Shown: piece by piece, positions 21,686-21,845 of the stretch
Layout of the letters: each line of letters opens with the position of its first letter
Numbering within the stretch: position 1 is the first letter of the stretch
NCBI GenBank assembly: GCA_046484135.1
Contig: JAWOBU010000017.1
Coordinates: forward strand, 18,696-82,695
DNA: 64,000 bases
From: a bacterium
Lineage (GTDB): Bacteria; RBG-13-61-14; DATKZS01
Direction of reading: 5' to 3'
Notes under the pieces: generated by a model
What the model saw: the letters and a program-made list of their open reading frames with translations, nothing else
Databases searched by the model: none
Told to the model about the DNA's origin: nothing
Made by a program: the position numbers and the translations under genes

Positions 21686-21845
21686 TACTTAAAATAAAAA
21701 AAGCCCGCCCCGCGAATAAAAGGACGGACCTGCAATTCTTCCTCCTTTCCAATCGCGGGAGGCCCGGCCGTTTCCAGCCGGACCCTGTCGGTCCGGGCGC
21801 CGTAAAGCGCGACTTTCGAGAAGCGGCTTCCCAGGCTCCCGGACT
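21686..21845 (-). ncRNA. Candidate Moco-type (molybdenum/tungsten cofactor) riboswitch in the leader of the TupA-like gene
   Basis: Minus-strand leader reads ...AACCUCCGAGUCCGGGAGCC...GGAAAGGAGGAAG... then GC hairpin + UUUUUUU just before the RBS. CCUCCGAG and GGAAAGGAG recalled as Moco-motif conserved blocks. Not verified by covariance model. Confidence 0.3.

Follow-up and report, generated by a model that had tools for sequence, protein, structure and literature searches.

The minus-strand leader of the tupA-like gene in the window (the whole 64-kb stretch of DNA analyzed here) very probably holds a transcriptional OFF switch for tupA, a Moco RNA of the P3-less Tuco/Wco form at 21691-21863 (-). 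The leader is a genuine member of RF01055, the Moco/Wco riboswitch family: an Rfam scan of the full 64-kb window at gathering thresholds returned a match at 21726-21863 (-) with 74.6 bits against a gathering score of 36 (E 3.6e-16), far beyond chance, and the alignment of the window copy spans model positions 1-135 of 135. A first-pass annotation of the letters had called a possible Moco/Wco riboswitch here, a call that now stands at twice the gathering score, and both of the core blocks that it quoted, AACCUCCGAG and GGAAAGGAGG, are found on the minus strand (Table 1). The range that it gave, 21686-21845, includes the terminator and the larger part of the aptamer but stops 18 nt short of the 5' end, leaving out the 5' strands of both outer and inner P1; aptamer and terminator together actually cover about 21691-21863 (-). 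The riboswitch class and its link to tupA are already published, and the window element adds an instance. The interest lies in the unusual genes of two regulons, rather than in the RNA itself, which is ordinary.

Table 1. Features of the two riboswitch-associated clusters in the window, with strand and basis of assignment.
Feature	Position	Strand	Basis
Core block AACCUCCGAG	21853-21844	-	sequence read
Core block GGAAAGGAGG	21750-21741	-	sequence read
Outer P1, GCAA/UUGC	21861-21858 with 21735-21732	-	Rfam alignment, computed coordinates
Inner P1, CCUCC/GGAGG	21851-21847 with 21745-21741	-	Rfam alignment
P2, long distal extension	21844-21834 with 21801-21791	-	Rfam alignment
P4, GAAA cap at 21774-21771	21785-21775 with 21770-21760	-	Rfam alignment
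P5	21759-21758 with 21750-21749	-	Rfam alignment
Candidate sigma-70-like promoter, TTGATT (21896-21891)-17-TAAACT (21873-21868)	21868-21896	-	sequence read
Intrinsic terminator, 11-bp stem 21731-21721 with 21711-21701, 9-nt loop	21691-21731	-	folding
Predicted antiterminator	21709-21759	-	unconstrained minimum-energy fold
RBS AAGGAGG and tupA ATG	21679-21673 and 21668-21666	-	sequence read
tupA-like gene, 291 aa	20793-21668	-	PF12849, NF041772, PDB matches
cpaM, corrinoid-protein-associated methyltransferase	20034-20729	-	NF043040, 276.7 bits (cut-off 180)
HgcAB-like fusion	18970-20037	-	NF043039, 371.5 bits (cut-off 285)
MobA-like NTP-transferase-fold protein, 324 aa	17970-18944	-	PF12804, 31 bits; 2dpw, E 6.5e-5
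Promoter-like site TTGACC-17-TACAAT	14625-14653	+	site scan
Riboswitch #2, RF01055, P3-less	14651-14775	+	Rfam, 59.7 bits
Riboswitch #2 terminator, 10-bp GC stem and U7	14803-14832	+	-17.1 kcal/mol
GEGP-motif dihaem protein gene	14937-16220	+	NF041762
OprO/P-type porin gene	16238-17389	+	PF07396

The aptamer lacks the P3 stem: the P3 positions of the model are deleted, and the spacer between P2 and P4 is 5 nt long (CGACA, 21790-21786). With R1, a covariance model built for P3-less RNAs, it scores 54.7 bits. The unpaired core (CUCCGAG, CCUCCC and UUGGAAAGGAG) is complete in the window copy and invariant in seven aligned instances. P4 carries a GAAA tetraloop, and the P2 bulge reads CCUGGG...UACGG. 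The canonical tetraloop receptor in this bulge is CCUAAG...UAUGG, to which riboswitch #2 of the window and the L098 copy come nearer than window copy #1 does. Judged from its sequence, the aptamer appears to fit the P3-less tungsten (Tuco/Wco) subclass on every feature testable here. The candidate promoter upstream fell under the scan threshold because it matches 8 of 12 consensus positions; transcription from it would start near 21861, the first base of P1. The CCUCC of P1 could pair with the GGAGG of the tupA RBS as well as with the P1 3' strand, which is probably incidental.

Related leaders were screened with a looser core pattern followed by R1; a strict regular expression had missed the Rfam-confirmed copy in the sister genome L001. 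All eight related aptamers lack P3. P3-less copies also occur near more distant TupA homologues in tupAB/tupABC operons (L005 and L170), and the L168 copy lies upstream of a TupA homologue near a contig end, while the TupA-homologue loci L007, L169 and L171-173 have no riboswitch. Eight genuine P3-less instances were aligned with R1, which fits the alignment to the model structure and hence biases it toward that structure; on this footing 88.4% of cells are paired and both sides change in 18 of the 32 pairs. The covariation score is 0.456, against 0.176±0.03 for shuffled alignments (0 of 500 as high) and at most 0.144 for slid registers. Because P3 is deleted in the window aptamer, covariation was examined in P1, P2, P4 and P5, each of which has at least one pair changed on both sides; in P2 and P4, many GC pairs have become CG or AU. 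The covariation that had been looked for in P1 and P3 thus holds for P1, and for P2, P4 and P5 as well, whereas P3 does not exist here.

The proposal that a GC hairpin and U7 just before the RBS form an expression-platform terminator is borne out by folding. The hairpin, GGUCCGUCC...GGGGCGGGC, is followed by U7 (21702-21696), A and UUUU, folds as an intrinsic terminator and alone comes to about -13 to -15.6 kcal/mol. The RBS and ATG lie outside it, 17 nt past the U-tract. When the aptamer is enforced, the sequence after P1 forms the 11-bp hairpin (aptamer and terminator together, -77.4 kcal/mol, versus -81.8 kcal/mol for the unconstrained transcript to the U-tract). The unconstrained fold contains a predicted antiterminator, in which CCCGCGA (21759-21753) pairs with UCGCGGG (21715-21709), and GAAAGGAGGA (21749-21740) pairs with UCC-G-UCCUUUU (21728-21718) of the terminator 5' arm. 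Because this alternative fold uses up the core and both arms, the aptamer 3' core and the terminator are predicted to be under mutual exclusion, which would be a textbook OFF-switch design. The minimum-energy folds of the L001 orthologue and of riboswitch #2 are without such an antiterminator, so this step is one that we infer. A hairpin and U-run also follow seven of the eight other related aptamers (L001, L005, L170, L097, L098, L174 and window copy #2). The stem sequences of these seven hairpins are unrelated, and their recurrence despite this indicates that termination is the conserved output.

In the switch that we propose, P5, GGAAAGGAGG and the P1 3' strand would pair with the hairpin arms when cofactor is scarce and so form the antiterminator; RNA polymerase would then read into tupA, and probably on into the cpaM, hgcAB-like and MobA-like genes on the same strand. 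When cofactor is abundant, P1 and P5 would be locked, the 11-bp hairpin and U7 would form, and transcription would stop at about 21696-21702.

The first gene of the cluster contains, as the first-pass annotation had it, the peptide TTTSTENSGLL of a binding protein, and the open reading frame belongs to the TupA family. Its product has a signal peptide and the motifs ATTTST, SRGDESGTH and GQGMG. It matches the solved structures 3lr1, 5my5 and 3muq (E 1e-68 to 1e-70), and ATTTST and SRGDxSGTH, which we take to be tungstate (anion) binding motifs, align in 3muq and 3lr1. The NF041772 score of 244.8 bits is under the equivalog cut-off of 400, so we file the gene as a TupA-family homologue and not as an equivalog. 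The protein shares 60-65% identity with binding proteins of tupABC operons, and those homologues have tupBC, or at least tupB, alongside; tupBC was not found in the tupA cluster of the window or of the sister genomes L001 and L003, nor anywhere in the 64-kb window. Altogether, the product is likely a periplasmic tungstate-binding protein homologue.

The Moco RNA was defined by Regulski et al., who demonstrated that the element at E. coli moaA is an OFF switch and described expression platforms of two kinds, RBS and terminator (PMC2408646). Of 176 representatives, 58 were without P3; these track tungsten use and tup/wtp genes, and P3-less RNAs precede tup genes (PMC2408646). The absence of P3 is the signature of the tungsten-cofactor subclass (PMC2408646; PMC11725836). 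A 2024 study of E. limosum described five RF01055 elements without P3, including one that precedes tupABC, and found that limiting tungsten derepressed the two of terminator type (PMC11725836). As the cofactor is unstable, its binding has been demonstrated directly for no family member (PMC2408646), so the assignment of tungsten versus molybdenum rests on correlation.

We weighed several other readings of the element. One is that this riboswitch responds to the molybdenum cofactor, or to the molybdenum and tungsten forms alike, which strikes us as unlikely: P3 is absent from the window aptamer, the regulated gene is a homologue of TupA rather than ModA, and the P3-less elements of E. limosum behave in a tungsten-dependent way (PMC11725836). 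These points, which lead us to prefer tungsten as the probable ligand, have to be set against the fact that the specificity of P3-less RNAs was assigned by correlation with gene context, that in the original survey tungsten genes were not identified for 2 of 19 organisms (PMC2408646), and that our search for tungsten or molybdenum enzymes within the 64-kb window found none. Control might also be translational or dual, with the P1 5' strand competing for the tupA RBS. In the minimum-energy fold of the full leader, CCUCC (21851-21847) does pair with the true RBS (21673-21677), and the E. limosum tupABC riboswitch has been proposed to act on translation (PMC11725836). This pairing would repress the ligand-free state, however, the opposite of what an OFF switch requires, and the RBS lies in no conserved helix and 17 nt beyond a canonical terminator and U7; we give translational control only a slim chance. 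It is hardly credible that the element is a decaying, non-functional relic. Riboswitches have been lost in the sister genomes, L003 having no copy #1 and L001 retaining just a 5' remnant of copy #2, but the window copy has twice the gathering threshold, all core nucleotides, the GAAA loop and an intact terminator.

The reach of the OFF switch beyond tupA is less certain. The tupA-cpaM gap measures 63-118 nt in the window, both genes being on the same strand; the true cpaM start is probably the ATG at 20675. The hgcAB-like gene overlaps cpaM by 4 nt, and its fusion product combines an NVWCAA-bearing corrinoid domain with a membrane domain and a 2x[4Fe-4S] ferredoxin. The same-strand cluster ends with the MobA-like gene, assigned at the level of the fold only; its product scores far under the cut-offs of the MobA and MocA models. 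In none of the three genomes (window, L001 and L003) did the gap between tupA and cpaM show a terminator-like site, which makes co-transcription plausible, and we infer it on that basis. It is also possible, and we rate it only somewhat below an even chance, that the riboswitch governs tupA alone and that the cpaM, hgcAB-like and nucleotidyltransferase genes form an independent unit. A survey of HgcAB-like fusions, with one genome per species, yielded 80 loci spread over many phyla of bacteria and archaea; at 72 of them CpaM comes before the fusion, as would befit a self-contained pair. None of the 80 has TupA, the nucleotidyltransferase or a riboswitch, with no TupA within 7 kb, and the remaining neighbours are heterogeneous; the juxtaposition of tupA with cpaM and the hgcAB-like gene is thus lineage-specific, and TupA or the riboswitch as a general partner of HgcAB-like/CpaM is ruled out. 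Further in favour of an independent unit, the tupA-cpaM gap varies between 63 and 200 nt, L001 has a promoter-like site within the 3' end of tupA, and L003 keeps the cluster with the riboswitch gone. Yet all four genes are on one strand with short or overlapping junctions, their order is kept across the three sister genomes, and the tupA-cpaM gap is free of terminator-like sites. The value of riboswitch #1 is chiefly for annotation: it flags tupA of this uncultured bacterium as tungsten-responsive, and perhaps the corrinoid genes downstream as well.

The two sister genomes, L001 and L003, have the same gene order at 76-78% protein identity and differ in their riboswitches. The window genome has both copies, 7 kb apart, with one aptamer per leader. 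In L001, riboswitch #1 scores 49.5 bits and its terminator has compensatory changes; of #2 a 5' remnant is left (10325-10448, -), whose 5' half is nearly identical to the window copy and whose 3' core is gone. This remnant, undetected by Rfam, now adjoins the CGGC-domain gene's promoter, and L001 has lost the GEGP and porin genes by deletion. The L003/L174 genome carries riboswitch #2 only (L174, 2201-2325); its tupA leader (L003, 4219-4427) is short and unrelated and has no riboswitch, while the tupA-cpaM-hgcAB-like cluster is intact. Thus, the sister genomes have lost either one riboswitch or the other, and riboswitch #1 is dispensable, since L003 carries the tupA-cpaM-hgcAB-like operon without it.

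Riboswitch #2 stands before a gene for a GEGP-motif dihaem protein and an OprO/P-type porin gene, and its terminator hairpin is identical in a sister genome. The profile evidence for these two genes (14937-17389) is a 427-bit match to NF041762 and a match to PF07396. We surveyed 80 metagenome loci encoding GEGP homologues (L089-L168). Of the 45 loci whose sequence extended far enough, 36 have a porin after the GEGP gene; at 11 of the 80, a TupA homologue is encoded within 2.5 kb of the GEGP gene, frequently in the order GEGP-porin-TupA (e.g., L096 1254-4879, L107 540-3826 and L124 2372-5664). A riboswitch precedes the GEGP gene in the window and at L097, L098 and L174. The conserved pair with TupA beside it (11/80) suggests, from gene context, that GEGP and the porin belong to tungstate/molybdate physiology.

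What the GEGP protein does is harder to read. Its C-terminal part (residues about 180-427) gives sub-threshold, co-linear matches to PF00174, the molybdopterin-binding oxidoreductase domain, in 12 of 23 family members, and the top Foldseek match of its AlphaFold model in the PDB is YedY/MsrP, at a non-significant E of 0.28. These matches are a hint of a possible pterin-cofactor domain. Three further searches for a link to pterin enzymes (hhalign, an HMM search against E. coli MsrP and a PDB profile search) were all negative. With PF00174 below threshold, Foldseek not significant and the other remote-homology tests negative, we consider membership of GEGP in the sulfite-oxidase/YedY enzyme family weakly supported. 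The GEGP-porin pair, which shares operons with tupA in other lineages, may be an outer-membrane module for tungstate acquisition, or else a very divergent pterin-cofactor (sulfite-oxidase/YedY-like) enzyme. Tentatively, and with more doubt than confidence, we suggest that the Wco regulon extends beyond transporter and cofactor genes to the GEGP-dihaem lipoprotein and porin, and maybe to the CpaM/HgcAB-like pair. The two riboswitch copies together nominate the GEGP-dihaem/porin pair for tungsten or molybdenum physiology, and a cofactor-sensing RNA before gene families of no known function is a cheap, testable clue. If either regulon link is functional, it would be the first physiological handle on families without an assigned role.

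Known systems resemble the window arrangement in part. The Tuco riboswitches of E. limosum have the same plan of P1, P2, P4 and P5 without P3, and, like the window, that organism has one such element before a tup gene or genes (tupABC) (PMC11725836). Its fetABC1 and focA elements, like ours, follow the aptamer with a terminator hairpin and poly-U, and are derepressed when tungsten is limited; its regulon, too, extends past cofactor genes. In contrast, RBS sequestration was proposed for the E. limosum tupABC copy whereas the window platform is a terminator, and E. limosum has tupABC whereas the window tupA is without tupBC and is followed by corrinoid-methyltransferase genes. The hosts also differ, a Firmicute in that case and an uncultured diderm known from a MAG in ours. 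The E. coli moaA riboswitch (PMC2408646) belongs to the same family and shares the conserved core, GAAA tetraloop and OFF logic, but it has P3, responds to Moco and not the tungsten form, acts through the RBS and targets cofactor biosynthesis. In Syntrophomonas wolfei, the Moco RNAs are P3-less and each is followed by an intrinsic terminator, as in the window (PMC2408646); the operon downstream holds molybdate/tungstate transport genes and genes of unknown function. Three RNAs stand in tandem in one S. wolfei leader, whereas the window has two leaders with a single aptamer each.

Between the two riboswitch-controlled clusters, in the window and in its sisters (three genomes), lies a CGGC-domain gene (PF08821; 17601-17945, +). 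It has a strong promoter-like site of its own at 17463-17491 (TTAACT-17-TACAAT with TG). Control of this gene by riboswitch #2 was considered and rejected: the gene has a strong promoter of its own in each genome, and in L003 the porin gene is followed by a terminator. Elsewhere in the window, a group II intron domain V/VI match (RF00029, 44.8 bits) at 982-1063 (+) lies just upstream of an ECF-type ABC ATPase gene, and an IS110-family transposase open reading frame (PF01548 and PF02371) occupies 52900-53874 (+).
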